NCBI GenBank assembly: GCA_016839765.1
Contig: JAEOTP010000046.1
Location: 1-14,148, forward strand
Source: Promethearchaeota archaeon
GTDB lineage: Archaea > Asgardarchaeota > Lokiarchaeia > Sigyniarchaeales > SOKP01
Length of the DNA stretch: 14,148 nucleotides
Reading direction: 5' to 3'
Part shown: piece after piece, positions 1 through 14,148 of the stretch
Layout: every line of letters begins with the position of its first letter
Position numbering within the stretch: position 1 is the stretch's first letter
Program-made: the position numbers and the translations under genes
Notes under the pieces: model-generated
What the model was told of the DNA's origin: nothing
Database searches by the model: none
The model's input: the letters and a program-made list of their open reading frames with translations, nothing else

Positions 1-131
1 GAATCCTTTAAATCTTGAAATATGGGATTGAGTTCTAAGTTCAATAGTGAAATTTTTCCCGATAAAACTTCTTTTTTTACATTTTCGATTTTTTGATTTA
101 TTTCTTTGGAATAATCTTTAAATTCAATCAT
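1..131 (-). CDS. N-terminal part of a probable kleisin/ScpA-like SMC partner (runs off the window edge; not in the ORF track)
   Basis: ATG at 131-129 overlaps the SMC stop (ATGA coupling). The frame is open to the edge: MIEFKDYSKEINQKIENVKKEVLSGKISLLNLELNPIFQDLKD. 'VLSGKISLLNLEL' loosely resembles the ScpA N-terminal 'LV..G.IDPWDIDI' segment. The CDS is well supported; the product call is weaker. Confidence 0.6.
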   Translation of the reverse strand, partial: MIEFKDYSKEINQKIENVKKEVLSGKISLLNLELNPIFQDLKD

Positions 132-3100
132 TTATTTCTTCTTTTTATTATTTTTGGATTAAATATAGTAGAAACTTCTTTCTTTCCAACCCTAGCTACG
201 CCTATTAGTTTGTCTGCTAAAAGAAACAAACTGCTTGAGGATTTTGGTAAGAACATAAGTAGCTGTATGGGATTCTGTTCGAGAGTCGCTTTTATCATTT
301 GATGAGAAGCCTCTGCATTTTTATCATCCAAAAACATACCAGCCTCATCAAACATACATAATGGTGATGACTTGATTTCTTGCAAAGATAGAATAAGACA
401 AATGGAAATCATAGAAATTTGTCCCCCACTAAGCGCCTTACAAGATTTTAATTGCTCTTTTGTAGTTGCAGCTTTGATATCTATCCCTAATTCTTCAAAA
501 TTACCAATTAAACTAAGCGAACAATAAGATTTAATATTAGCAGATTTGAATTTTTGGTTAATTCTTAACTCTAAATCATTTAATGTTGATTTAAACTTTT
601 GGTAATAAGTTTCCTCTAATTTACTTTCAGTCTTAATGGCAGCATTTATATCTTTTTGCAAACTGTCTTGATTTTTTGTAATTTCTTTCATACTTGATAA
701 GATCTGCTCTTTTTCAATTAAAATTGAGTCATCTACATCTAAATATTTCAATAAATCTTTATCTATTCTCAAAATATCTTCTTTAATCTCATTTATACTA
801 CGCATCTTAAAATCTTTTGATGCGAGTATAGAACCTATCTCAAAATTGATTCTTTCTAAATCACTTTCATTGGCCATTAATTCTTGCTCTAGGGCAGTAT
901 TTTTTAGAATTTCTTGTTCTAATTTTATTTTAACATCTAAATGCTCTTTATCAAGAAGTATTCTTTCTTTCTGGATTTCTGATTTATTTTTTTTTAACTT
1001 AGCGATATCTTCTTCTATTCCGTCAATTTTATCATCAACTAACTCTAATTTCTGGTAAATTTCAAAAGCATCCTTATCTGATTTTTGAAAAATTTGCTTT
1101 TTCAGTTCATAGTCTTGTTTTAAAGTATTTAGTTTCTCTTTATAATCATTTAATTTTTCATTAACTTCATGCCTCTGCTCTATGTTTCCGCTGAGTTTTA
1201 TTTCCCATTTTTTTAAATCTTCATTGTGAATATTTAACTCATCAGGTATTTCTTTAATTCTTTCACTCCATCTAAAAATCTCAGGCTCTCTCTGAGATTC
1301 TAAATATTGAATCTTCTTTTCTATATCAATTATGTTATTTTGAACTATAACAGTATTATTTTCAAGATTATGTATAACTTCATAGAGTCTATTCTTTTTT
1401 GTTGTTAATCTTTGTTTTTGATTAAAATTATATAAAAGATCATTAAATGCTTCTTTCTTCTTATAAAGCTCCTTTTGGATTGTATCAATTTTAGATTGTT
1501 CAACTCTTAATTCAGATATGCGCTCATTTAAGGAATTAATTTCTGACTCTAAATTGCTCAATTGTTCTTTTAGTGTACCCGTACTGAGAAATCCTTTTAA
1601 ACGCTTTTGATAAGGTGTTTCATAAACATATTTATATGAAATTAACTGTTCTCCTTTTAAAGTCACACACTTGCCTTTAAAATTATAATTTTTATAGATT
1701 TGGATACCTGAATGGTAATCTTCAACAACTAAACAGTTTTTTACTTTAGAATAAATAACTTTTTTAATATCAATATCATCATTAACAACTTTTATTAATT
1801 CTGCTAAATAACCTATAACTTTTTCGGCAGAAAATTCCAGTAAAGAGCGAATACTTAGATTTTTAGTTATGTAGATATTACAATAAGCATTGTATTTATT
1901 CTTTAATCGATTCAAAAGACTTAATGTATCCCAATCACTTACTATAAAGCTATATAGCAGCCTTTCTCCTAGAACTGATTCGATTGCATAACTTAGTTTA
2001 TCATCATATTTCAAAAAGTCGATAATTGGTCCCTTTACCTTCTTATCTAATTCCCTTTTTCCTATCTCTTCTTTTAAAATATTAATACTAGGGGGTAAAA
2101 CAACCCTACGTTCTCTTAAGGAAATTTGTAAATTTTTAAATTTGCTTATTAAATTTGTTCGTTCAAATTGTGATTTGTTTAACTCATTCCCTTGTTCAAA
2201 TAAATCTTTAGAATTTTTTCTAAGCTCATTATCAATATGCATGAGTAAATCTGTTGTTGGATTCTCAAGAAACCATTTATTTTTTTCCAATTTATGTTCA
2301 ATATCTTTAAAACTTTGAAAAATCTCATTAATTTCAGAATTTATATCTTTTATTTTATTTTTGTTTTCTTCGATTTTGGTTAAGCATTTTTGTTTTTTAT
2401 GAATCAATTGATTGTACTCTTTTAAAAAATCTTCATTTTGTTTGATCTTTTTTGCTATTATATTCTGTTCTTTTATTAAATCATCTATTTTTAATTTTAG
2501 GGCTTTTTTCTCCTTTTGAATTATGCTAATCTCGTTGTCTAAAGTTTTCTTTTGGCTCTGAACATTTCCTAGTCTCTTTTCTAATGTAATTATCTTTTGA
2601 TTTAAAATATCTAATTCTTTTTTTGCTTGTATTTTCTCTTGTTCCCAGGTCCTAATTTTTTCAATTAATTTTTTTTTTCTATAAATTAATTTCCCTAACT
2701 CTTTTGAAAAATCATTGATCTTTATTTCAATATTATTTATTTTCGAATCCTTTTCTAGAAGTATCTTTTCATAATCTTCTGTATCTTTTTTAATCTTAGC
2801 AATTACTATATGAAGGTTTTTAAATTTTTCTTTTAAAGCTAGTATTCTTTCTTCTAATTCATTCTTATTGGCATATAACAATTCATCTTCATGAACTTTC
2901 TTTAGCTCAAGTAAGTTATGTTTTTGCTTTAATCGTTTAAGTTTAGGTTGTAGAAGATTTAAACTGATATTTAAGGTATTTCTTCTACTTACTAATGATT
3001 GAAAATCTCGATTTAAATGATAAATCTTTCCCTTTTGTTGTAAAATTTCATCTCTCAATCCTTTTAATCCAATTCCTTCTTCTAAGAAGATACAAAGTTC

Positions 3101-3565
3101 AATTGGTTTTAAATTTTTAATGGCGTCGATCTTTCCTTGACTCACAAAAGCAAATTGATTATCTGGATTAATTTTTAGATCTGAAATTAGCTTTTGAATC
3201 TCAATGGCATGCGTTCGCTTGAAACCTTTATTAGTTCCTCTTTCAATCTCAAAAAAAGGTGATTGTCCTCTTATCACTAGTCTTCTTATTTTAATTCTAT
3301 CATTATTATTTTGAATATGAAGCTCAACCATTGCATGATCTTGCCCATTTCTGATAAAATCAGACCATTTTTTATATCGTTCATCTCTTTCATTACTTCC
3401 TAACGCAAATTTGATTGCCTGAAATATTGAGGTTTTTCCTGACCAATTAGGGCCAATAATTATGATGAATTTGGCATTATCAAAGTCAACCTCGTCTCTT
3501 TGAAAACTTAAGAAATTTTCAAGAATTACTTTCTTAAGAGATATATTATTAGTCTCAGTAGTGAT
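128..3565 (-). CDS. smc: SMC-family ATPase (chromosome segregation protein, SMC5/6-like motifs), about 1145 aa
   Basis: The frame stays open upstream of the ORF-track ATG (3331) to a TGA at 3586-3584 and adds ITTETNNISLKKVILENFLSFQRDEVDFDNAKFIIIIGPNWSGKTSIFQAIKFALG (Walker A). Also present: Q-loop FVSQGKID, two long coiled coils, hinge (GPIIDFL...AIESVLG...VTLKGE), signature LSGGQ and Walker B/D-loop LCMFDEAGMFLD. Start placed at ATC 3565 (or 3568) behind a strong RBS. Confidence 0.93.
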   Translation of the reverse strand: MTTETNNISLKKVILENFLSFQRDEVDFDNAKFIIIIGPNWSGKTSIFQAIKFALGSNERDERYKKWSDFIRNGQDHAMVELHIQNNNDRIKIRRLVIRGQSPFFEIERGTNKGFKRTHAIEIQKLISDLKINPDNQFAFVSQGKIDAIKNLKPIELCIFLEEGIGLKGLRDEILQQKGKIYHLNRDFQSLVSRRNTLNISLNLLQPKLKRLKQKHNLLELKKVHEDELLYANKNELEERILALKEKFKNLHIVIAKIKKDTEDYEKILLEKDSKINNIEIKINDFSKELGKLIYRKKKLIEKIRTWEQEKIQAKKELDILNQKIITLEKRLGNVQSQKKTLDNEISIIQKEKKALKLKIDDLIKEQNIIAKKIKQNEDFLKEYNQLIHKKQKCLTKIEENKNKIKDINSEINEIFQSFKDIEHKLEKNKWFLENPTTDLLMHIDNELRKNSKDLFEQGNELNKSQFERTNLISKFKNLQISLRERRVVLPPSINILKEEIGKRELDKKVKGPIIDFLKYDDKLSYAIESVLGERLLYSFIVSDWDTLSLLNRLKNKYNAYCNIYITKNLSIRSLLEFSAEKVIGYLAELIKVVNDDIDIKKVIYSKVKNCLVVEDYHSGIQIYKNYNFKGKCVTLKGEQLISYKYVYETPYQKRLKGFLSTGTLKEQLSNLESEINSLNERISELRVEQSKIDTIQKELYKKKEAFNDLLYNFNQKQRLTTKKNRLYEVIHNLENNTVIVQNNIIDIEKKIQYLESQREPEIFRWSERIKEIPDELNIHNEDLKKWEIKLSGNIEQRHEVNEKLNDYKEKLNTLKQDYELKKQIFQKSDKDAFEIYQKLELVDDKIDGIEEDIAKLKKNKSEIQKERILLDKEHLDVKIKLEQEILKNTALEQELMANESDLERINFEIGSILASKDFKMRSINEIKEDILRIDKDLLKYLDVDDSILIEKEQILSSMKEITKNQDSLQKDINAAIKTESKLEETYYQKFKSTLNDLELRINQKFKSANIKSYCSLSLIGNFEELGIDIKAATTKEQLKSCKALSGGQISMISICLILSLQEIKSSPLCMFDEAGMFLDDKNAEASHQMIKATLEQNPIQLLMFLPKSSSSLFLLADKLIGVARVGKKEVSTIFNPKIIKRRNK

Positions 3566-3569
3566 GATT

Positions 3570-3581
3570 TCACCCCCTCCT
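3570..3581 (-). promoter_or_regulatory. Shine-Dalgarno sequence for smc
   Basis: Minus strand reads AGGAGGGGGTGA immediately before A-ATC-ATC-ACT. Confidence 0.75.
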
Positions 3582-3586
3582 TTTCA

Positions 3587-4846
3587 TTATTTACCAAAAG
3601 CTTGTTTGATATGATCCATCCTTTTTTTCGCTTTTTCTAAATTGATTTGTGCTCTACTGGGAGAATCATTTAAAATAAATGGATATTTTGCTAACAGCTT
3701 TCTTTCATTTTCCTCAAGAATTTCCTTTTTATTTAATTTATCCAGAATGATAACAAGTTCTGTATAATTCTTTGAAGCCGCATTTTCATATAATTGATTC
3801 AGCATAAATTCGGAAATAGGTTGATTTTGGATGTGTTCTTGTATAGATTGAAGTTCATTAAAATTAATCTTTTTATAAGACTGCGTTTTTTGAATTTGGT
3901 TTATTTTGGAAGCAAACTTATAATTTTCATTATATAGATCTTGAATTTCTTTAGTTTTAGCTAATATAGATGGTATAAATTCACCTGATTCGATTAAATT
4001 AATTATAACAGCAGTTATTTCATTCGAAGTTTCATTCAATTCAGAATTAAGAAAATGCTTGAAAACCGCTGTTTTTAATAAATGTTTTATTTCTTGAATT
4101 TCCCAATTCTGCGTATATTTAACAATTTGATTAATATCAAATACTATTTTTTGATTCTTTTCAGAAAAATTTTTCAGTACTATTTCCCTTTCACTATTAC
4201 TTAATAAAGGGATTTTAATGAAAAGATCAAAAATCTGAAAGATATCTTTTGAGTTTTTTTCTATTTCATTAAGATTTTTATTTATCCATATTAAAATGAT
4301 TCCATTTTCTAGGAAAGTAAATTCATAATTTTTAAGGGTATTAATAAAGAGTTTCAATAAATTCTTTTCATTAAGTAAAGTTTCTGTTAATTCTACTTGA
4401 TCAATTAAAAACAATTTGTTTGGTTTATTTTTTTCATTAACTTCATCGTAACCGTTTTTATTTTCATTTAGATTATTGACTTTACAAGTCAAATCCTCTA
4501 TAATTTGCTTTAGAATAATATTAAAATTTTTAAAGAATTCTTTAGGTTCTTTTGAAATTTCTAAATAGTTTAATTCTACAAAGTCTAAATAATAATTCTT
4601 TGAAATTAATTTTAAGAAATCTAAGATATCTGTACCAGAATCAATATTGATTAAAAGTAAGCCTTTAGGTATAAGGTATTGTTGAATTGTTGAGTATTCA
4701 TTGTTTGTTAACATTCTCTTTATATAGTTAATTATATCGTTATATTTATCTCTATAAAATATGTCTTCTCTCTTGATATCAATTTCCGATGGCGAAATTA
4801 CTCGGTAATATTGATTATATCTTAAATTTGTTTCTGGTTCCTTCAT
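3587..4846 (-). CDS. Degenerate (probably inactive) CDC48/p97-like AAA+ domain protein with C-terminal helical extension
   Basis: Follows the classic AAA layout: IPKGLLLINIDSGTDI (eroded Walker A), LFLIDQ (Walker B with E to Q), IILIWINKNLNEIE (SRH position), FDLFIKIPLLSNSEREIVLK and DINQIVKYTQNWEIQEIKHLLKTAV (lid). Confidence 0.7.
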   Translation of the reverse strand: MKEPETNLRYNQYYRVISPSEIDIKREDIFYRDKYNDIINYIKRMLTNNEYSTIQQYLIPKGLLLINIDSGTDILDFLKLISKNYYLDFVELNYLEISKEPKEFFKNFNIILKQIIEDLTCKVNNLNENKNGYDEVNEKNKPNKLFLIDQVELTETLLNEKNLLKLFINTLKNYEFTFLENGIILIWINKNLNEIEKNSKDIFQIFDLFIKIPLLSNSEREIVLKNFSEKNQKIVFDINQIVKYTQNWEIQEIKHLLKTAVFKHFLNSELNETSNEITAVIINLIESGEFIPSILAKTKEIQDLYNENYKFASKINQIQKTQSYKKINFNELQSIQEHIQNQPISEFMLNQLYENAASKNYTELVIILDKLNKKEILEENERKLLAKYPFILNDSPSRAQINLEKAKKRMDHIKQAFGK

Positions 4847-4906
4847 TGGGAAATCAAATCCTATCTTTTATCCTATTTTTAAACATTATCTACATGGGAA
4901 TTTATA

Positions 4907-4925
4907 CATATATATTTAGCGGTAG
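4907..4925 (-). promoter_or_regulatory. Putative BRE/TATA promoter of the AAA-smc-kleisin operon
   Basis: Minus strand CTACCGCTAAATATATATG about 60 nt upstream of the ATG at 4846. Confidence 0.45.
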
Positions 4926-5118
4926 CCACAGTTTTGAATAATTAAACAACCGACAAAAATCGTAAAGTTTATAAAATCATAATTTTAGGTAAACCTGTTT
5001 AATTAAATGCATCAGAAATTTATATGTAATTCTTATTTCAAGTACCTATTTAAATAAGTCTAATCTTCTAATACTCTTAAGAATTCTTTAACTCGTATGC
5101 TGATATTTAAAGCAATAA

Positions 5119-5128
5119 TAAAAAAAAT
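5119..5128 (-). terminator. Oligo-T terminator candidate after the DUF2769 gene
   Basis: A-run on the plus strand (T-run on minus) just downstream of the stop at 5141. Confidence 0.4.
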
Positions 5129-5140
5129 TAGTTAAGTATT

Positions 5141-5401
5141 TTACTTCCTACCCTCGATTCCATGCATACAAAACCATCCGCCTTCTAGATCAAATTTTGA
5201 AAAAAGGTCACACTTAAAACAATTACAACCCTTATCTTCTACTTGATCCATTGGCTTTGTAGTTTTTCCTCTGGAACAAAAAAGAGCATGTGGTTCTAAT
5301 TCGTTTAATTTGTTTGGTTTAAAAGTAGGGCAAGGACCACAGAACTTTTTACAGATATCCATATTTTCGGGGGTATTTGGAACTGGTTGAGGCATTTTCA
5401 T
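5141..5401 (-). CDS. DUF2769-like small Cys-rich (metal/Fe-S-binding) protein
   Basis: Pattern VPNTPEN..C...CGPCPTF...LFCSRGK...GCNCFKC...WFC..G with 9 Cys in 86 aa; GGAG RBS upstream. Confidence 0.75.
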   Translation of the reverse strand: MKMPQPVPNTPENMDICKKFCGPCPTFKPNKLNELEPHALFCSRGKTTKPMDQVEDKGCNCFKCDLFSKFDLEGGWFCMHGIEGRK

Positions 5402-5587
5402 CTAACTCCGTTCATACAATAAGTTTTTATATTAATTTTTTCGAAATTCTTTATTAAACAATAATAAAATTTTCGATTACGATATACTAAACTCTACAAA
5501 CTTTTAAAATTAATAGTTATAGATTATAGATTTTGAATGAAGATGATCATCTAGTAAAAAATAAGGTTTTAAAGTATAAAATTGAAA

Positions 5588-5992
5588 TTATGTAATACTA
5601 AATTCATGATTTAGATTATTTAATTGCTCCTTAAATTCATCTTTTATGAGACTATAATAAGTAAACTTCCCCTTTTTCCAACCCCTTATTAAATTAGCTT
5701 TCTCTAATTCTCGTAAATGGTGAGATATCGAAGATTGGGATTTATCTAAGATTGCCTCCAATTCACATACGCAACGATCTTTCTCTTTTAACGCGTTTAT
5801 TATAGTAATTCTTTCTTTATTTCCCAAAGCATTTAAAAAAGTAAAAATTAAATCTAATTTCTCATCCAATCTTAATTGCGTTCCTAATTGTTGTAAATTT
5901 TCAAAATATTTGTCACTATCAAAACACTCATCACAGCTACAAAGCATTTGTTTGATTTCAGTCTTGCGATCTATTTTTATAAAAATCACCAA
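5588..5992 (-). CDS. arsR: ArsR/SmtB-family metalloregulatory repressor
   Basis: ALGNKERITII...DRCVCELEAILDKSQSSISHHLRELEKANLI...KKGKFTYYSL, a winged HTH with the alpha3 CVC As(III) site, plus an extra N-terminal CSCDEC. Divergent from the acr3/arsC operon. The start is uncertain (TTG 5992, GTG 5989 or ATA 5980). Confidence 0.93.
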   Translation of the reverse strand: MVIFIKIDRKTEIKQMLCSCDECFDSDKYFENLQQLGTQLRLDEKLDLIFTFLNALGNKERITIINALKEKDRCVCELEAILDKSQSSISHHLRELEKANLIRGWKKGKFTYYSLIKDEFKEQLNNLNHEFSIT

Positions 5993-6050
5993 TTATTATC
6001 AATAAAAAATCTCTTTATTATTTTAGAAGTTATTAAATTATAAAAATTTT

Positions 6051-6098
6051 ATTCATATCGAATCATTTAGATTCACATCGAAACATTTTTATTTGAAA
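6051..6098. promoter_or_regulatory. Tandem ArsR operator candidates overlapping a BRE/TATA-like element
   Basis: Direct repeat with 20-bp period: ATTCATATCGAATCATTT (6051-6068) and ATTCACATCGAAACATTT (6071-6088). Each copy holds a dyad core ATnnAAnnnnTTnnAT (6057-6072, 6077-6092). It lies between the divergent arsR and the operon. Confidence 0.65.
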
Positions 6099-6141
6099 TA
6101 TTCTATTAATATCTTAAGCTCTAACCATATAGAATTCACAA

Positions 6142-6894
6142 ATGAATAAAATGGAAAACAATAAAAAACTTAAGATTGGATTAATTTCTGACGGTAAGTA
6201 CGGAGATAGAGCATATGAAAATATAAAAAAGAAATTTGAAACTGACTGGATACTCCTCCCAGAGATACCACCAAATATTATGTTAGATGATGAGCTTGGT
6301 TTTGAAATTCCTGAGTGTGACCTTTACATTTCATATATTCGGCATCCAGATATAATGCTAAAATTAGCAGAGCTTCAAAAACCATTGATTTTGGGCATAC
6401 TTCCGGGAATTGGGTTATACTTACAAACCAGAGAAATAAATCCTAAAGTTATTTATGCACCTACAATTTGTTCATTGGAAAATAATACAGGGATTCCTGA
6501 AATTGACCTATTTACTAGTTATTTCGGCCGACCTATTTATCAAGTTAAGATAAATGAGGATAGGGTTATTAATGACATTGAAGTACGTCGTTCTTCACTA
6601 TGTGGGTCTTCTGAAGCTGGAGCGAAATTCCTACTAAATAAAACTTTTAATAAAGAAAATCTTCAATATTTTGCTTTAAGTGTTTGTTATGAATGTCGTG
6701 CACCCCGTTTTGGGCATACTTGTGATAAGGAAGTAGCGGGAATTATTCATTTGGTTTCAATTTTTGAGAGTATATCCACAGAAATTTCAAACAAATTTGA
6801 TAAAAATTTAAAATCCTTTATCAAAGATATTGGAAAGGAATATAAAAGAAGATCTAAAAATTCAGAGTTATTACAAAAAGAGGTAATAATTTAA
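6142..6894 (+). CDS. DUF166-family protein
   Basis: Motifs DGKYGDRA, CDLYISY..HPD, P.ICSL, FGRP, V.RSSLCGSS match the archaeal DUF166 family as I recall it; additional CYEC...C near the C-terminus. Confidence 0.75.
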   Translation: MNKMENNKKLKIGLISDGKYGDRAYENIKKKFETDWILLPEIPPNIMLDDELGFEIPECDLYISYIRHPDIMLKLAELQKPLILGILPGIGLYLQTREINPKVIYAPTICSLENNTGIPEIDLFTSYFGRPIYQVKINEDRVINDIEVRRSSLCGSSEAGAKFLLNKTFNKENLQYFALSVCYECRAPRFGHTCDKEVAGIIHLVSIFESISTEISNKFDKNLKSFIKDIGKEYKRRSKNSELLQKEVII

Positions 6895-6897
6895 ATT

Positions 6898-7977
6898 ATG
6901 CAAGAAAAAGAATTAAATAAAGCTGGAAAGGAAATTATAGATAGTATTGAGGTTAAAGAAGAAAAGGGTAAAAAAATTAGCTTTTTTGAAAAATTTCTTC
7001 CTCTTTGGGTGGCTATATGTATCTTTATAGGAATTTTGTTATCACAAATTTTTCCGGGGATAAGTAAAACAATAGAGTCTTTAAAAATTGGAGAAATTTC
7101 TATACCAATTGGAATTTGTTTATTCCTAATGATGTATCCTGCGATGTTGAATCTACAAGCTTCTGAATTAAAAAAATTGGGTAAGAATCCTAAACCAATC
7201 ATCTTAACACTAGTCTCTAATTGGCTGATTGCGCCTTTTGTAGGTTTAGCGATGATTAGACTCTTTTTACCTGGAAATGAACAATTATCAGTTGCTATTA
7301 TTTTATTGTCAAGTTCACCATGTACTGCAATGGTTCTTGTGTGGGGCTGGATGGCACGAGGTAATCAAGAACAAAATGTAATAAATACCAGTTTAAATAC
7401 AATGACGATCATATTTGGGTATGCTCCTTTAGTCGCATTGTTAACAGGGATTCAAAACATACCAATTGACTGGGTTCTCTTATTAATATCGATATTCATT
7501 TTTATAGGACTTCCTTTAGTATTGGGAATAGTAAGTAAAAGAATATTAATCTCTTCTAAAGGAGAAAATTGGTTTAATAACACTTATCGACCAATCGTAG
7601 GAAAAATTTCGATTATAGCTTTATTAACGACATTAATAGTACTTTTTTCATTGAATGGAGATGTTCTAATTCACAATCCAGATTTACTAGTATTAGTTTC
7701 TATTCCACTTTTAGTAGGATTTCTAATTGTTGTTGGTTATAACATTTTAATTACTAAACTTTTCAAACTGAAATATAAAGAGGCTGTTATAACTGTAATT
7801 ATTGGATCTTCAAGTCACTTTGAAATTGCAATTGCTACTGCTATTGCTATGTATGGAATTGGTTCAGTTGCTGCTTTAGGTACAACTATGGGTTTATTTT
7901 GGGAGGTTCCTGTAATGCTTTCAATAGTATATTTAGGTAAATATCTAAAAAAACGTGGATTTTGGAAATCTGAATAA
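6898..7977 (+). CDS. acr3: Acr3-family arsenite efflux transporter
   Basis: About 10 hydrophobic helices with FFEKFLPLWV, LMMYPAM, NWLIAPF, PCTAMVLVW (essential Cys), SSHFEIAIA and EVPVML; GAGGT RBS upstream. Confidence 0.96.
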   Translation: MQEKELNKAGKEIIDSIEVKEEKGKKISFFEKFLPLWVAICIFIGILLSQIFPGISKTIESLKIGEISIPIGICLFLMMYPAMLNLQASELKKLGKNPKPIILTLVSNWLIAPFVGLAMIRLFLPGNEQLSVAIILLSSSPCTAMVLVWGWMARGNQEQNVINTSLNTMTIIFGYAPLVALLTGIQNIPIDWVLLLISIFIFIGLPLVLGIVSKRILISSKGENWFNNTYRPIVGKISIIALLTTLIVLFSLNGDVLIHNPDLLVLVSIPLLVGFLIVVGYNILITKLFKLKYKEAVITVIIGSSSHFEIAIATAIAMYGIGSVAALGTTMGLFWEVPVMLSIVYLGKYLKKRGFWKSE

Positions 7978-8028
7978 TTTGTAGGTTTTTTTAAATTTTA
8001 TAAATCAATAAATATGAGTGAGAAATAA

Positions 8029-9693
8029 ATGGCTGTCGTCTACATGCGAAAGTTGGAGCAAGAACCAAAAAGTTATGACTCAAATTTTACTACTCTTACA
8101 AAGGGAGTAAATCTCGAAATTCAAGATTGGGTTCTTGATCACATCAATACTTCAGAATCAATTTTAGAAATCGGATGTGGTACCGGTATACTAGCTGCCA
8201 AAATGGCATTAAAAGGGAATGATGTTATTGCTATTGATAAAAATTTTCAAATGATTAATTATGCAATGAAAAATTACCCTCAAAAAGAAAATTTACATTT
8301 ACTATTTCAAATAGGTTCATTTTCTAACCTTCAAGCTGAACATCATTCGAAAGATATATTAGTGAGCACATTCATGTTATCAGAATTACGTCCATTTGAG
8401 CAGCAAATTTTTCTTCGGAATGCATGGAAAGCATTAAAACCAGAAGGACGATTAATTATAGCCGCTGAATTTATCCCTTCGGGATTTTGGAAATTAGTTT
8501 TTAAGATTAAGAGATGGCGGTATAAAAAAAAGCTTAGAAGACTTCGATTAAAAAGTACTTTCCTTTTGAAATGGTTTTTTAATTATCTAGAGCCGATAGG
8601 ATTTAAAATCAATGCTCAAAAAAAATGGAAACATGGCTCTATTCAAGTTATGGAACTAAAAAAGATAAATTACAACCAAACTGAGGAATCTGGTTATTAT
8701 CGTCCTATACCAAAAAAATTTAAGGGACTTCGTTCTCAATTTAGGATTTATCGATGCATTTTTACTGGACAAGTTGATCATGTTCCTATTGAACCAGGCA
8801 TTTACCAAGCTGGCAATCCTGATAAAAATTCTCCGATTATTGTTACAGCCAATTATGAGTATAGCTACATTAAAGTGATGAGAGATTTGAAAGATATTAG
8901 TGCGTGGGTATTATGTGTAGATTCTAATGGAATTAATGTGTGGTGTGCTGCTCGTGGTAATAATTTTGGGAATGCACAACTACTCGAAGCGATAGAAGCG
9001 ACTGGCATTCAAAATTATACAAGTAAAAAAACTTTATTACTCCCCCAACTCTCTGCTGGGGGGGTAGCTATTCCAGATTTACCAATAAATTCAGAAAAAT
9101 TCCCATTTAAGGTAAAATATGGTCCAGTTTGGTCGAAACATATACCAAATTACTTAAAAGATCAACCTTCCAAAAAATCAGAAAAAATGAGGCTTGCCAG
9201 ATTTACAATTTCTCATCGTATCCGCGCTGGAATAACGCATACCACATTTCTATTCCGTAAAATATTCATGTTGCCCATTTTGGCTTTACTAGTGTTATTT
9301 TTAGGCCTATACATCTTTACAGTTTTTGATAAATTATGGTGGATTGGTGAACTGTGTATCTGGATTTTATTTCCTAATATGATTATATTTTTGTTATTTC
9401 CACTTTCAAAATTTACTCAGAAATTTGTAAATAAAGGATTTTTCTTTGGATTTATTAATATAGTCATTTTAGGTGGATTAACGTGGTTAATACATAATTC
9501 AATTTTTTATACTCTGATTAATTTACCTTTTTTCATTTGGATCACATTTTTTTCAACGATGTCTTTTAGTGGTTATACAATGGCAACAAGCCCAAGAAAA
9601 ATTGAAAATGAATATCCCATTTTTAGCAAATTAAATAAAATTTTACTATTGATAAGTTTGGTTTCCTTACCAATTGGAATTATATTTTATTAA
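8029..9693 (+). CDS. hgcA: Fusion protein: N-terminal class I SAM-dependent methyltransferase plus HgcA-like corrinoid-binding domain and C-terminal membrane domain
   Basis: Residues ~1-215: ILEIGCGTG, VIAIDKN, ALKPEGRLII. Residues ~250-400: PGIY..G.P..NSPIIVTANY, GINVWCAARG (cap helix, Cys306, nt 8935-8958), LLLPQLSAGGV, VKYGPV, KMR.ARF. Residues ~405-554: about 5 TM helices with SGYTMATS...E. The symbol indicates homology, not proven Hg methylation. Confidence 0.88.
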   Translation: MAVVYMRKLEQEPKSYDSNFTTLTKGVNLEIQDWVLDHINTSESILEIGCGTGILAAKMALKGNDVIAIDKNFQMINYAMKNYPQKENLHLLFQIGSFSNLQAEHHSKDILVSTFMLSELRPFEQQIFLRNAWKALKPEGRLIIAAEFIPSGFWKLVFKIKRWRYKKKLRRLRLKSTFLLKWFFNYLEPIGFKINAQKKWKHGSIQVMELKKINYNQTEESGYYRPIPKKFKGLRSQFRIYRCIFTGQVDHVPIEPGIYQAGNPDKNSPIIVTANYEYSYIKVMRDLKDISAWVLCVDSNGINVWCAARGNNFGNAQLLEAIEATGIQNYTSKKTLLLPQLSAGGVAIPDLPINSEKFPFKVKYGPVWSKHIPNYLKDQPSKKSEKMRLARFTISHRIRAGITHTTFLFRKIFMLPILALLVLFLGLYIFTVFDKLWWIGELCIWILFPNMIIFLLFPLSKFTQKFVNKGFFFGFINIVILGGLTWLIHNSIFYTLINLPFFIWITFFSTMSFSGYTMATSPRKIENEYPIFSKLNKILLLISLVSLPIGIIFY

Positions 9694-9739
9694 AATAATA
9701 AAAAAAATTAAAAAGTATAAAAAGATAGAGGTTATAAAG

Positions 9740-10045
9740 ATGACAGAAATAGATTTTAAAACACTTAATTTTACCGAAATCGTAAAGAATATACGAATTT
9801 TTATTAATCGAGATGCGTGTAATGGATGTGGATTGTGTAGAGAGATATGTCCTTTTGGATTACCTCAACCTAGCAATAATGGAAAATATGAAATAACAAA
9901 CCCTGATCTCTGCACAGAATGTAGCGCTTGTAAAAGAAATTGTCCGACTCAAGCTATTATTATGCAAGAACAAGCGGGTTGTGGATGTTTGTGGAATGTT
10001 AGGAATAGAGTAAAGAACTCAAATCAATCGTGTAATTGTGGTTAA
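9740..10045 (+). CDS. hgcB: HgcB-like 2x[4Fe-4S] ferredoxin with Cys-rich tail
   Basis: CNGCGLCREICP and CTECSACKRNCP, then AGCGC and a terminal SCNCG; directly downstream of the hgcA-like gene. Start moved from TTG 9674 to ATG 9740, which has a GAGGT RBS at 9728-9732 and avoids overlap. Confidence 0.85.
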   Translation: MTEIDFKTLNFTEIVKNIRIFINRDACNGCGLCREICPFGLPQPSNNGKYEITNPDLCTECSACKRNCPTQAIIMQEQAGCGCLWNVRNRVKNSNQSCNCG

Positions 10046-10063
10046 AATATTTGGTTATTAATC

Positions 10064-10336
10064 ATGGAAGAAAATAACAAATTAAGAGTTGACATTTATG
10101 TTCCATTAGATACATGCTCCTGTGAATGGGATAAGTTTATGAATCGTGTTTTTACTGTTTTAACACCTTATATCAAATATATTACTTATGATACTAAAAA
10201 TCTTAATTCTGAGGAAGCAAGAAACCTAAATTTACATGGAAATACTATAGTTGTTGACAATAAGAAAAAATATACCGCTTCCTATTCATTAAAAACAGAT
10301 TTGCCCAATTTACTTAGAGAAAAAGGTTTGCTTTAA
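10064..10336 (+). CDS. Small thioredoxin-fold-like protein with CxC motif (possible metallochaperone or redox partner)
   Basis: Strand VDIYVP followed by DTCSC, a helix, then EEARNLNLHGNTIVVD resembling the thioredoxin/glutaredoxin C-terminal motif without the cis-Pro. Confidence 0.6.
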   Translation: MEENNKLRVDIYVPLDTCSCEWDKFMNRVFTVLTPYIKYITYDTKNLNSEEARNLNLHGNTIVVDNKKKYTASYSLKTDLPNLLREKGLL

Positions 10337-10366
10337 TCCTATTGATTAAATTAAGGTGGTTAAAAA

Positions 10367-10723
10367 ATTAAAAAAATAGAATTTGAAATTAGTATACCTG
10401 TAAAAGGGCTCCAACAGGGTAAAAAATATACACTTAATGTCGAAGATAATACTGTTTTCATAGAAACATTAGCACTGGTGGATAAAATCGAGATGGCAGA
10501 GACCAAGAACATGATTTTTCCCCTATATGAAGGTTATATTCATAGTTATCTTCAGCTTTTTGTAAATCTAGAAGAAGATTCAATATACGATGATGTTGGG
10601 GTGTATGCATATGCGCCTGATGAGCATGGAATTATGCAAAAGTTTAACCCTATTAGAGAAAATATTGAATTCAACTTATATCCTGATAGTGTGATTCAAT
10701 TACAACCAGATGTAGGATGTTGA
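10367..10723 (+). CDS. Beta-grasp (ubiquitin/MoaD-like) protein ending Gly-Cys; candidate selenoprotein
   Basis: The frame is open upstream of GTG 10478 to TAA 10361-10363. ATT 10367 follows RBS AAGGTGGT (10353-10360) and gives (M)KKIEFEISIPVKGLQQGKKYTLNVEDNTVFIETLALVDK...LYPDSVIQLQPDVGC, which parallels the MoaD/Urm1 'L.DGD.I...P...GG' ending. It ends TGT-TGA-TGA. Confidence 0.65.
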   Translation: MKKIEFEISIPVKGLQQGKKYTLNVEDNTVFIETLALVDKIEMAETKNMIFPLYEGYIHSYLQLFVNLEEDSIYDDVGVYAYAPDEHGIMQKFNPIRENIEFNLYPDSVIQLQPDVGC

Positions 10724-10826
10724 TGAGAAAAGGTGAAAGAAAGATTGGACATTGGAACCCTTAAAACAATAATACGGCAAAAATATGGTAAAAGTAATAA
10801 ATATTTTGCACACTATTTCCAAACTT

Positions 10827-10881
10827 AATTTTTTGGATGATATCTTTCAAGAAATTGTAGTGAAAGGTTGACAAAGGGATT
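10827..10881 (+). other. Eukaryote/Lokiarchaeota-type SECIS-like RNA hairpin
   Basis: Lower stem AATTTTTT (10827-10834) with AAGGGATT (10874-10881; three G-U pairs). Core ATGAT (10837-10841) with TGAC (10869-10872). Upper 8-bp stem ATCTTTCA (10842-10849) with TGAAAGGT (10861-10868). Loop AGAAATTGTAG has unpaired As. Confidence 0.55.
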
Positions 10882-10982
10882 GCCTCCTATATATCATATA
10901 AAAAACCTTAAAATTACTAAAAGACATACTAAAAAAAATTTAGCACATAATTCTCGAAATAATTTAAAAACAAGTGTTATCA

Positions 10983-11414
10983 ATGGAGAAACCAAAAGTA
11001 GTTTTTCTTTGTACTGGAAATTCGGCACGTAGTCAAATGGCAGAAGCATTTCTTAAAAAGCATGCAGGTGAGCATTTTGAAGTATATAGTGCTGGGTTCG
11101 AACCTCAAGGTATACATCCTTTTACTATAAAAGTAATGGAAGAATTAGGTTATGATTTAAAAGATCAATATTCTAAAGAATTAAAGGAATTCTTAGAAAA
11201 AGTTCACTTTGGAATTGTTATAACTGTATGTGAAAAAGCTGAAAAGACCTGCCCAATTATTCCTGGAGTAAGTACTAGGTTATTTTGGTCATTTGAAGAC
11301 CCTGCAGCATTTGAAGGAACAGAACAGGAAAAAATCAATAAATTTCGACAAGTCAGGGACCAAATTCATCAAAAAATTCAAGTATGGTTAAAAGAAAGAG
11401 GAATTTTAAAGTAA
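10983..11414 (+). CDS. arsC: Thioredoxin-coupled arsenate reductase (LMW-PTP fold)
   Basis: FLCTGNSARSQMAE P-loop, YSAG, ITVC......CP redox cysteines and W.FEDP. ATG 10983 is preferred over GTG 10974. Confidence 0.95.
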   Translation: MEKPKVVFLCTGNSARSQMAEAFLKKHAGEHFEVYSAGFEPQGIHPFTIKVMEELGYDLKDQYSKELKEFLEKVHFGIVITVCEKAEKTCPIIPGVSTRLFWSFEDPAAFEGTEQEKINKFRQVRDQIHQKIQVWLKERGILK

Positions 11415-11418
11415 ATCA

Positions 11419-11427
11419 TCTTTTTTT
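11419..11427 (+). terminator. Oligo-T terminator candidate for the ars operon
   Basis: TCTTTTTTT just after the arsC stop. Confidence 0.45.
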
Positions 11428-11526
11428 AAAATTCAAGTTAAAATTAATTTGTTTTAATTTATCTACTCCTTTATTTTAAAATCTGAAACTTAAAAAATAA
11501 TTATTTATTTAAATTTTCAACTAGCC

Positions 11527-12474
11527 ATGGATATTTTCACTCACTTTATAATCGGAATACTTGCCAGTATTTATGGCCTTAAATCTTTACCATTTAGCCT
11601 TGTAATTTATGCCGCCATAATGTCAGTAATTGCTGATTTTGATATATTTCTAGAACCACTACGTTTGATTAAAAAGTCAAATTTTTTATCCCATAAAGGG
11701 TTATCCCATTCATATTTTACTGCTTTGTTATTTTCGTTTTTTACAGCAATATTATTTACCTTTATTACCAATGAAAACTTCTTGATTGCTTGGATTATTG
11801 GATTTCTTTTTTATAGTCTACATGTTACACTGGATTTAATAACAGCATCAAAAATTCCGATATTCTATCCTTTTTCGAAGAAAAGATATCGATTTTTCAT
11901 AGATAGAGCTATCAATTTATTTTTAGCTCTAATCTCTGGACTTGTTGTTTTATCTTATTTTTTAATGTTCTTTTATTTACCAGAATTATTCTTTTCTAAT
12001 TTATATCATTATATTTTTGGATTTTATCTCGCATATTTCTCTTATCGGTTCATTTCTAAAATCTGGATTCAATTCAAATTACCAAAAAATTCTCTTTACA
12101 TCCCCGGTATTCTTCCTTTTGTTTATTTTATTTATGAAAATAGTTCCTTAGGAAACTCCAATTTATTTAAATTTACAAAAAAAATTCAATTTTCAAACAA
12201 AAATTCTCTTCTTTTACAATCTGAATTATCTAAGAGCTCCAATGATATAAAGTTCTATGAAAAGGCTATAAAAATTTCAAAAGATTATGTATTTTTTACT
12301 AAGTGGGAAGCAGTTATTCCAATAGTAGAAAAAGATGATGAATATTACACTATACTTTTAGTATTAACAGAAAGCTATTTTTCAGGGTCAGCCTACGCGC
12401 TCAAAATGGTATTTAATAGAAAATCAGATACAATTGAAAATATATCTGGCGGATTTAACTTGTTTAAATTATAA
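11527..12474 (+). CDS. Membrane-bound metal-dependent hydrolase (YdjM-like)
   Basis: MDIFTH, ADFD, HKGLSHS, SLHVTLD and FYPFS motifs with multiple TM segments. Confidence 0.85.
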   Translation: MDIFTHFIIGILASIYGLKSLPFSLVIYAAIMSVIADFDIFLEPLRLIKKSNFLSHKGLSHSYFTALLFSFFTAILFTFITNENFLIAWIIGFLFYSLHVTLDLITASKIPIFYPFSKKRYRFFIDRAINLFLALISGLVVLSYFLMFFYLPELFFSNLYHYIFGFYLAYFSYRFISKIWIQFKLPKNSLYIPGILPFVYFIYENSSLGNSNLFKFTKKIQFSNKNSLLLQSELSKSSNDIKFYEKAIKISKDYVFFTKWEAVIPIVEKDDEYYTILLVLTESYFSGSAYALKMVFNRKSDTIENISGGFNLFKL

Positions 12475-12672
12475 AACATTGCAGATATCTATTCTTTTTT
12501 ACAGTTAAAAGTTTCACGAGTAAAACTAAAAATAAGTTTCTTCTTTTAAGTTTTCAATGAAAGATTTTCTATTTATAATAAATATTTAAATATATGTTTA
12601 TCTGAAACACTAATTGTCAAATCTAATTTGAATAAAAAATTAAATTCTAAATTATATAGAAGTGATAAAAAT

Positions 12673-14091
12673 ATGGAACGTTCAACAAAAAGAATTCTTG
12701 CAATAGTCCTTGTAATAGCAATTGCAGGTGCTGGAATAGGAATTGGACTCTGGTTTGTTTTCGCGCCACAAGAATCTGTCTTTGAAACTCCTGGAGTTTC
12801 AGGTGTTTCTGATGATCGAATAATTAAAATTGGCTTACTTGGAGGTATAACTGAAATACAAGGAAAAGGAAATTATGAAGGTGCGTGGTTAGCAGCCCGT
12901 AATATCAATCAAGCTGGTGGTGTTGAAGTTAATGGTACAATTTATTATATAGGGCTTGTAACTGAAGATACGGATGAATCAAATCCTGTCCTTGATGTTA
13001 CTAAGGGAAATTCTGCGGCTGAAAAAATAATTGAAGTAGATGGTGCAGAATATATCATCGGTGGATTTAGAACAGAAGCTTTAAAAGCCTATATTGAAGT
13101 TGTTATGGATGCTAAAAAGTTATTTCTTGGAACTGGGGCATCAACAGATTATTTCTGCGGTAATGTTTACGGAGAAGCGTATTCTAGTTACACCAGATAT
13201 AAATATTGGTTTAGGGTTATGCCTATTAATTCAAGTGCATTAGGAGGATCGCAAATCCGTGAAATGGCTTATCTCAAGTCATATTTGACTGCTGTACTTG
13301 GCAAAAATGTTACCGAGGTGGCTATTTTACGAGAAGGTTTAGACTGGACCATTCCAATGGATAATGCACTTCAAACCTACCTTCCCCTATACGGATACAA
13401 TATAGTAGCTGATATTGATTATCCAATTACAGCTACAGCAACGGATTTTGCTACTTACTGGAATCAAATCCAGGCAGCAGGTGCCCAAATCGTAGTTCCA
13501 GTAATTTCTGCTCAAGGTGGACTTTATATGATGTCTCAATATAAAGCTCTCACACCCCAATGTCTTATTGTAGGTATCGATGTCCAATCACAGTTAGATA
13601 CATTTTGGGAAGATACTGGTGGTACCGACGTCATAGTTGGAGATTGTGCATATGAAGTGATAATGCAATCAGTTTATAATACAAGTAAAACAGCCTTAAC
13701 AGTAGCCTTCTGGAATGATTTTTTTGCTACATTTGATCATGAACCACTATACACCGCCGTAGGAGCCTATGACGCTGTAACTTTAATAGCTGATGGTATT
13801 AACGCAACTGGAAGATTTAAGGCTGAAACGCTAATAGGTTGGCTCGAAAGCTTTACAAAAGCTAGTCCGTTGACTGGAACGAGTGTTTCAACAGGTTCAG
13901 TGGCTTGGAATCCATCTCACGATATAGTATCTTCCATAGAAGCGGGTTGGCCATTCGGTTCTACTTTATACTGCCAATGGCAAACAGATGGTACAAAACA
14001 TGTTATTTCATCTGGAAATTTACTTTATCCAGACAGTATAGTAACAGGACCTCTAGCAATCCCTCCTTGGGGTATTAATGACCCCCCCTAA
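12673..14091 (+). CDS. ABC transporter substrate-binding protein, LivJ/LivK-like (type 1 periplasmic binding fold), N-terminal membrane anchor
   Basis: Hydrophobic anchor ILAIVLVIAIAGAGIGIGLWFVF, then IKIGLLG, LAARNINQAGGV, IIGGFRTE, YWFRV and AYDAV. ATG 12673 (after AGTGAT) is preferred over TTG 12628. Confidence 0.9.
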   Translation: MERSTKRILAIVLVIAIAGAGIGIGLWFVFAPQESVFETPGVSGVSDDRIIKIGLLGGITEIQGKGNYEGAWLAARNINQAGGVEVNGTIYYIGLVTEDTDESNPVLDVTKGNSAAEKIIEVDGAEYIIGGFRTEALKAYIEVVMDAKKLFLGTGASTDYFCGNVYGEAYSSYTRYKYWFRVMPINSSALGGSQIREMAYLKSYLTAVLGKNVTEVAILREGLDWTIPMDNALQTYLPLYGYNIVADIDYPITATATDFATYWNQIQAAGAQIVVPVISAQGGLYMMSQYKALTPQCLIVGIDVQSQLDTFWEDTGGTDVIVGDCAYEVIMQSVYNTSKTALTVAFWNDFFATFDHEPLYTAVGAYDAVTLIADGINATGRFKAETLIGWLESFTKASPLTGTSVSTGSVAWNPSHDIVSSIEAGWPFGSTLYCQWQTDGTKHVISSGNLLYPDSIVTGPLAIPPWGINDPP

Positions 14092-14126
14092 AAAAGAAAA
14101 CAACCGTATAATAAAATCAAATCAAA

Positions 14127-14146
14127 TTTTTTTTTTTCTTTTTTTT
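14127..14146 (+). terminator. Long oligo-T terminator
   Basis: Nearly pure T tract about 35 nt after the stop; also complementary to AAAAAAGAAAA at 14090-14100. Confidence 0.6.
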
Positions 14147-14148
14147 CA

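Follow-up and report, generated by a model that had tools for sequence, protein, structure and literature searches.

A gene with two adjacent in-frame TGA codons in an ars cluster

The window analysed here is a stretch of 14,148 nucleotides (contig JAEOTP010000046.1, positions 1 to 14,148, of assembly GCA_016839765.1) from a genome that is 96% complete; its relatives carry the label Promethearchaeota, which corresponds to Lokiarchaeia. It contains a gene cluster in the order divergent arsR, DUF166, acr3, methyltransferase-corrinoid fusion, HgcB-like ferredoxin, CxC protein, the putative selenoprotein gene studied here, and arsC (Table 1). At 10715-10726 this gene reads GGA TGT TGA TGA, and the frame then continues for 33 sense codons to a TAA at 10826-10828, both as reported in a preliminary description of the sequence. 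That description had also singled it out as the only gene of the cluster to end in TGA, and TAA is the stop codon of each of the eight further genes examined (6142-14091).

The ATT at 10367 has an in-frame TAA two codons upstream and is preceded by a Shine-Dalgarno-like motif that keeps the same spacing in most homologs. Some homologs have ATG in the start column; most have ATT, ATC, ATA, GTC or TTA. Near-cognate starts (ATT, ATC, ATA, GTC, GTT, TTA or TTT) with strong Shine-Dalgarno motifs were observed in the window gene and most homologs, and the motif is absent from several ATG-start homologs. The use of near-cognate starts is possibly a wider trait of Lokiarchaeia.

Table 1. Positions of the gene, its parts and the neighbouring features in the window
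Feature	Position	Strand	Basis
Host cluster	5588..11414	.	Annotation; co-occurrence counts
Upstream neighbour, 90-aa CxC protein	10064..10336	+	Thioredoxin/ArsD-like by motif only
Shine-Dalgarno-like motif AGGTGGT, 5' of near-cognate start	10354..10360	+	Sequence; homolog spacing
Full putative CDS, 153 aa (residues 1-117 beta-grasp, Cys118-Sec119-Sec120, 121-153 helical tail)	10367..10828	+	ATT start, TAA stop
Predicted MoaD/SAMP/Urm1-like beta-grasp domain	10367..10717	+	Structural matches, profile alignment
Putative Cys-Sec-Sec (TGT TGA TGA)	10718..10726	+	TGATGA conservation, gap-free subfamily register, MoaD/SAMP profile alignment
Conserved helical tail, 33 aa, downstream of both UGAs	10727..10825	+	In-frame selection
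Predicted lokiSECIS (AUGA/GA core; upper stem of 8 bp and a U.U; A-rich loop of 11 nt with terminal AG; short lower stem with 3-nt bulge)	10833..10874	+	MvhD-only covariance model, covariation, descriptor scan
AUGA	10837-10840	+	
Hairpin 5' arm	10841-10849	+	
Loop, 11 nt, ends AG	10850-10860	+	
Hairpin 3' arm	10861-10869	+	
GAC	10870-10872	+	
Second small conserved hairpin, partly overlapping the SECIS lower stem	10874..10890	+	

The CxC protein belongs to a family with an invariant C-x-C-x-W motif that weakly matches TsoX and is otherwise unnamed; in a recurring cluster at four loci (L057, L062, L079 and L094) it is encoded on the opposite strand. Positions 8029-10045 encode the fusion, which joins a CpaM-like methyltransferase with an HgcA-like corrinoid protein (NVWCAARG), and then the HgcB-like ferredoxin, which has extra CGC/CNCG motifs. 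The methyltransferase, HgcA-like and HgcB-like matches all fell below the NCBIfam cut-offs, and the CpaM/HgcA-like module might methylate As rather than Hg. The DUF166 protein (6142-6894) weakly matches the bacterial (seleno)protein DfsP and has no in-frame TGA. A small Cys-rich DUF2769 protein is encoded downstream of arsR on the minus strand (5141-5401).

Coding conservation on both sides of the two TGA codons

A DNA-level collection of the family from genomes and metagenomes yielded 154 distinct full-length genes. All 154, including members with as little as ~25% identity, have TGA-TGA and the in-frame tail. A frameshifted near-copy of another locus was the one exception, and three other matches were N-terminal fragments. 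Among the matches listed for the full-length profile, 150 of 150 genome matches contain two or three TGA codons, and the first 69 database homologs either end at xGC or, under translation table 4, continue into the same tail. TGA was conserved throughout the homolog alignment. The second stop codon is TGA in every family gene and never TAA or TAG, and homologs ending GC followed by TAA/TAG, which had been proposed as evidence against a selenoprotein, were not seen. In the source genome 73% of stops are TAA, TGA-TGA terminates 2 of 1550 long ORFs, and a terminal TGA-TGA combined with at least 33 further open codons is found in only 2 of 3513 ORFs of at least 100 codons.

The tail gave a pN/pS of 0.26 in frame compared to 1.0-1.2 out of frame (101 genes), indicating purifying selection. 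The 30 codons after the UGAs (0.26) resembled those before them (0.28), both in frame, so that the conserved in-frame UGAs have coding conservation on both sides; stops are present in the other two frames of the tail region. A search for an all-Cys homolog found none, and none of the homologs has a Cys version of position 119 or 120.

Three subfamilies, G-C-U-U, U-G-U-U and D-U-U-A, align without gaps, and their members are often arranged in tandem within a locus. At position 118 the CUU members have Cys where the DUU members have UGA, and the gap-free register would make this a Cys/Sec pair. Position 120 is an Ala codon in the D-U-U-A paralogs and therefore lies inside a continuous chain. The ungapped subfamily alignment thus suggests both Cys/Sec and Sec/Ala swaps. 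Arrays of two to four paralogs (CUU, DUU, UGUU) per locus were found at L089, L092, L014 and L077, and some arrays apparently share one downstream SECIS. L014 (DATKTW010000027.1), labelled Nanopelagicaceae bacterium, has CUU and DUU genes with a lokiSECIS, which group within Lokiarchaeia clades, and is probably a mis-binned contig. At L008:6354-6400 a third in-frame TGA stands at a tail Gly codon, representing an error, a pseudogene or an extra Sec.

The preliminary description had offered two readings of the C-terminus. A terminal Gly-Cys-Sec, as in animal thioredoxin reductase, was rejected because the Sec is not penultimate: Cys-Sec-Sec is internal and 33 conserved residues follow. The other reading, Gly-Cys-Sec-Sec plus a tail, fits a tail that is conserved as protein and a second codon that is always TGA.

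Two other explanations of the TGA codons were considered. UGA might be reassigned to Trp or Gly, or TGATG might be a stop-start overlap for an out-of-frame gene, with the downstream hairpin incidental. Gene callers using table 4 did produce GCWW versions of the protein. However, TGA functions as a stop in 190 of 1550 long ORFs, within which Trp is TGG, the overlapping ATG frame spans only 2-14 codons in most genes, and the SECIS travels with the gene. Reassignment and the overlap gene were both rejected on these counts and are extremely improbable.

Alternatively, the locus might make two products, a beta-grasp protein ending Gly-Cys or Gly-Cys-Sec and a separate 31-aa peptide re-initiated at GTG 10733. 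The third or fourth tail codon is indeed of start type in 122 of 140 home-family genes (GTG 91/104, ATG 21/24 and NTG 10/12), the 91 of 104 genes with GTG at the 10733 column compare with 10% of Val codons genome-wide, and the family tolerates near-cognate starts. Yet an NTG is found at that column in only 2 of 14 distant members, the second stop codon is invariably TGA, no gaps interrupt the spacing to the tail in any subfamily, DUU with its Ala at position 120 included, and synonymous variation is seen in the codons that separate the UGAs from the GTG. We consider two separate products very unlikely. The bias towards GTG, ATG and TTG at column 10733-10735 is common to the three home-family subfamilies; GTG 10733 is a possible secondary re-initiation site rather than the start of a separate gene, and re-initiation could be a minor or Se-starvation route alongside readthrough. 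The gene very probably reads its two adjacent UGA codons as two selenocysteines, producing a 153-residue ubiquitin-shaped protein.

A predicted lokiSECIS next to the TAA

A hairpin with an AUGAU/UGAC core, an 8-bp upper stem and an A-rich loop was found where the preliminary description had placed it. AUGA precedes the stem and GA follows it (10837-10840 and 10870-10871), the 9-bp stem consists of a U.U and 8 pairs, and the 11-nt loop has an A-rich start and a terminal (A)G. The description had proposed scoring with a covariance model and a check for co-variation, and both were carried out. Among 67 homologs, 98% of upper-stem cells were paired, a percentage inflated because these rows were chosen by a pattern favouring the upper stem, and compensatory changes occurred at all 8 pairs; AUGA was invariant but was selected on. 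The lower stem and the second hairpin were not used in row selection. The lower stem, which had been called weak, is 2-4 bp long. Its closing pair is formed in 67 of 67 rows (64 G-C, 3 A-U), so that 3 bulged nucleotides separate it from the tandem G.A, an arrangement like that of a kink-turn. In the second hairpin 84.8% of cells were paired, with compensatory changes at all 6 pairs. A similar small hairpin lies 3' of MvhD SECIS elements (L183-L211), and in the portions of the lokiSECIS literature examined no small hairpin 3' of the core is described.

A covariance model built from MvhD elements only gave the hairpin as its top match in the window at 27.1 bits (E 3.6e-4, a rough value), with the next match at 11.5 bits. 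When the same model was applied genome-wide, 150 of 13352 candidates were scored and the window site was not among these. An exhaustive genome scan with an MvhD-derived descriptor returned 8 matches compared to 0-3 in shuffles, namely five established selenoprotein genes (VhuU, HdrA and three MvhD), the window gene and two imperfect ones. The spacing of the hairpin is identical to that of 29 MvhD SECIS elements. Plain MFE folding of the region did not recover the SECIS structure and was not above shuffles (z -0.93), so the support for the hairpin is comparative rather than thermodynamic; the SECIS core alone folds at -5.0 kcal/mol. An Rfam search gave no match to a SECIS family. Judged from its sequence, the hairpin is a predicted type I lokiSECIS: it has the defining features set out in PMC4989117, it covaries, and it is detected by an independent model. 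By the definition in that source, its upper stem is of normal size, and the earlier caveat that the stem is short was dropped.

A matching hairpin was present in about 134 of 150 family genes, in nearly all of them 107-144 nt past the first UGA, and many of the hairpin-less genes are upstream members of tandem pairs. The UGAs of the window gene lie 116 and 113 nt upstream of the SECIS. Since VhuU in the same genome is decoded with its Sec UGA 57 nt from its SECIS, both should be far enough away. Distant UGAs upstream of lokiSECIS have been argued to be decoded (PMC4989117). In distant lineages the MvhD-trained model clearly detected 1 of 12 SECIS, and a loose pattern detected hairpins in 7 of 10 compared to a null of 0.7%; the SECIS of these lineages are divergent or unproven.

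Sec machinery and distribution of the family

The source genome contains the Sec machinery: tRNA-Sec, SecS and a Sec-type SelD with an in-frame TGA scored above cut-off, and a PSTK-like gene and a contig-truncated EFSec were the best matches below it. SecS was detected in 151 of 161 genomes of the class Lokiarchaeia. The family itself occurs in about 138 of the 161, including complete genomes probably from cultured strains, and in all seven families of the class. It was not found in the other Asgard classes searched, and outside Lokiarchaeia the profile matches in the genomes searched, many of them incomplete, were canonical MoaD/SAMP proteins or noise. The family is therefore near-core in Lokiarchaeia and more widely distributed than its ars linkage. 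In one genome (G139 C10, L222:2534-6461) secS and a gene of the family are separated by about 2 kb.

Collectively, TGA-TGA in 154 of 154 genes, selection on the tail, the SECIS and the Sec machinery support the earlier claim of a new selenoprotein. Of the observations named beforehand as speaking against it, none was made: the homologs do not switch to other stop endings, the hairpin is conserved and the machinery is present. There is little doubt in our view that the product is a 153-aa selenoprotein.

A predicted beta-grasp fold similar to MoaD and SAMP

The AlphaFold model, with U read as C, had a pLDDT of 91.9 and a pTM of 0.89, the tail helices reaching about 97. Its best structural matches were SAMP1, CysO, MoaD and the transcobalamin beta domain, with Z-scores of 5.8-6.9; the scores are moderate, the top matches are consistently beta-grasp, and the transcobalamin beta domain scores on a par with the carriers. 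Superposition on beta-grasp carriers gave an rmsd of 3.0-3.8 A over 80-88 residues. The family profile aligned with P=88% and E=2.9e-6 to a canonical MoaD/SAMP1 protein, setting Cys118 and Sec119 at the terminal Gly-Gly of MoaD/SAMP. The predicted fold is thus a MoaD/SAMP-like beta-grasp. The C-terminal Gly-Gly for E1 activation is absent, and therefore the protein is not a member of the MoaD/SAMP/Urm1 group, only derived from it or similar to it. Pfam and NCBIfam gave no match for the selenoprotein, the PDB sequence search returned nothing significant, and ESM Atlas features gave no match at 0.9 or above.

A possible selenium-dependent metalloid chelator

The best explanation overall, to which we assign a probability of roughly 0.8, is a Sec-Sec selenoprotein acting as a metalloid chelator or shuttle. 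The functional part, binding or shuttling of As(III) or another soft metal(loid), has about an even chance of being right and ranks above a redox arm and a Se carrier. It is favoured because linkage to exporters repeats in separate lineages and because two to three chalcogens are clustered. In the long loci acr3 occurs in 29 of 40, arsR in 28, the CxC protein in 30 and HgcAB-like genes in 22-23, counts that are not independent because the 40 loci are related. In other lineages the selenoprotein gene directly follows arsR (one family) or a CDF exporter (others). The family mostly adjoins arsR/acr3 or CDF exporters, and several distant members stand alone with no metal genes beside them.

A redox role would have Cys-Sec-Sec cycling between selenolate and a vicinal diselenide or selenenylsulfide and serving as electron donor for ArsC, the CxC protein or the corrinoid module. 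Oxidoreductases make up the majority of selenoproteins (PMC13188914), the GUGUU redox motif of algal PDI_e (PMC7539508) resembles the U-G-U-U subfamily, and the CxC protein, both of whose Cys are invariant, is a neighbour in 81 of 117 loci. We nevertheless regard this role as unlikely: the protein has neither a thioredoxin fold nor CxxU spacing, the motif register shifts between subfamilies, and arsC is present in only 6 of the 40 long loci. A carrier or store of Se or S, either MoaD-like with Se at the former Gly-Gly site or a buffer for Se that As and Hg would otherwise tie up, would suit the position of Cys118-Sec119, the near-core distribution and the copy near secS. It is quite unlikely given that the free C-terminal Gly for E1 activation is missing, that the common neighbours include no recognisable E1 or sulfurtransferase, and that the consistent linkage is to exporters.

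In the chelator model, expression would be metalloid-regulated and the Loki-type SECIS just past the TAA would direct Sec into both UGAs, giving a selenium-dependent, high-affinity chelator and shuttle. Its clustered thiol and selenols would trap As(III), Sb(III) or some other soft metal and keep it for, or hand it to, an exporter (Acr3 in this cluster, CDF in other lineages) or the corrinoid methylation module. As/Hg binding is plausible from the gene context; actual Sec insertion, control by ArsR, the ligand and the partners are what we infer. As(III) is bound by vicinal Cys pairs in ArsD and some ArsR proteins. Three consecutive residues may be geometrically unable to chelate a single As atom. 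C-U-U and U-G-U-U would provide three chalcogens and D-U-U two, so paralogs at the same locus may differ in the ligands they prefer. Heavy-metal chemistry has also been linked to bacterial CU-motif selenoproteins (10.1101/2022.07.06.499078).

The protein may have originated from a MoaD/SAMP-type carrier by conversion of the Gly-Gly/stop region to Cys-Sec-Sec, followed by extension. Such a recoded carrier would present as many as three Sec within four residues of a ubiquitin-like scaffold. Under Se shortage its two parts, a domain ending in Gly-Cys and a tail peptide made by re-initiation, may be produced separately. The complete scenario, in which a near-core family with obligate Sec-Sec was recoded from a MoaD/SAMP Gly-Gly/stop end into a Se-based trap for arsenic or metals with a Se-shortage split, is tentative.

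Comparison with known systems

The decoding system, lokiSECIS and Sec machinery, is already known, and the protein family is absent from the selenoprotein lists searched. It is not among the 7 Asgard (PMC11227280) or 11 archaeal selenoprotein families, and the 2026 list of 119 prokaryotic selenoprotein families (Table 1, PMC13188914) has no UU motif and no beta-grasp family. A literature search with most subscription journals outside its coverage found no paper on the family. Homology screens based on Sec/Cys pairs would overlook it, since the searches turned up no all-Cys version and its start is often non-AUG. If correct, our reading adds one of the most widespread selenoprotein families of Lokiarchaeia, and the catalogues searched list neither an earlier tandem Sec-Sec from a prokaryote nor an earlier selenoprotein with a beta-grasp fold, so it would be the first of both. 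It would offer a natural test of how consecutive UGAs are decoded by an SBP2-less, eukaryote-like SECIS, and would tie selenium use in Asgard archaea to arsenic/metal detoxification, beyond hydrogenase and Hdr redox chemistry.

The lokiSECIS selenoprotein genes of Lokiarchaeia named in PMC4989117 and PMC11227280 are VhuD/MvhD, HdrA, VhuU, PrxL and SelD. The window gene resembles them in SECIS geometry and in its position next to the true stop, and just as HdrA and VhuD share one SECIS, several tandem paralogs of the window family appear to do so. In contrast, the window protein is unrelated to theirs, has adjacent Sec-Sec and has no all-Cys homolog. The only Sec-Sec precedent found in the literature searched is algal PDI_e (GUGUU), which PMC7539508 presents as the first selenoprotein to contain consecutive Sec. 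Its adjacent UGA-UGA is likewise decoded with a 3' SECIS and one window-family subfamily shares its U-G-U-U, but it is eukaryotic with a thioredoxin fold, and no homology is indicated. In bacterial SaoL, SaoB, SaoC and HgcA (10.1101/2022.07.06.499078) a Cys-Sec likewise lies short of the true C-terminus, disguised as a stop codon, in a heavy-metal or organometallic context; these CU-motif proteins differ in having a single Sec per motif, a bacterial SECIS and different folds.

MoaD, SAMP1, Urm1 and CysO share the fold and the register of the last strand. Unlike them, the window protein has no terminal Gly-Gly and instead carries Cys-Sec-Sec, a 33-aa tail and a ~20-aa insert. The tail of animal thioredoxin reductase is Gly-Cys-Sec-Gly. 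The likeness lies in the sequence Gly-Cys-Sec; in the window protein the motif is internal, a second Sec and a folded tail follow it, and there is no flavoprotein body.
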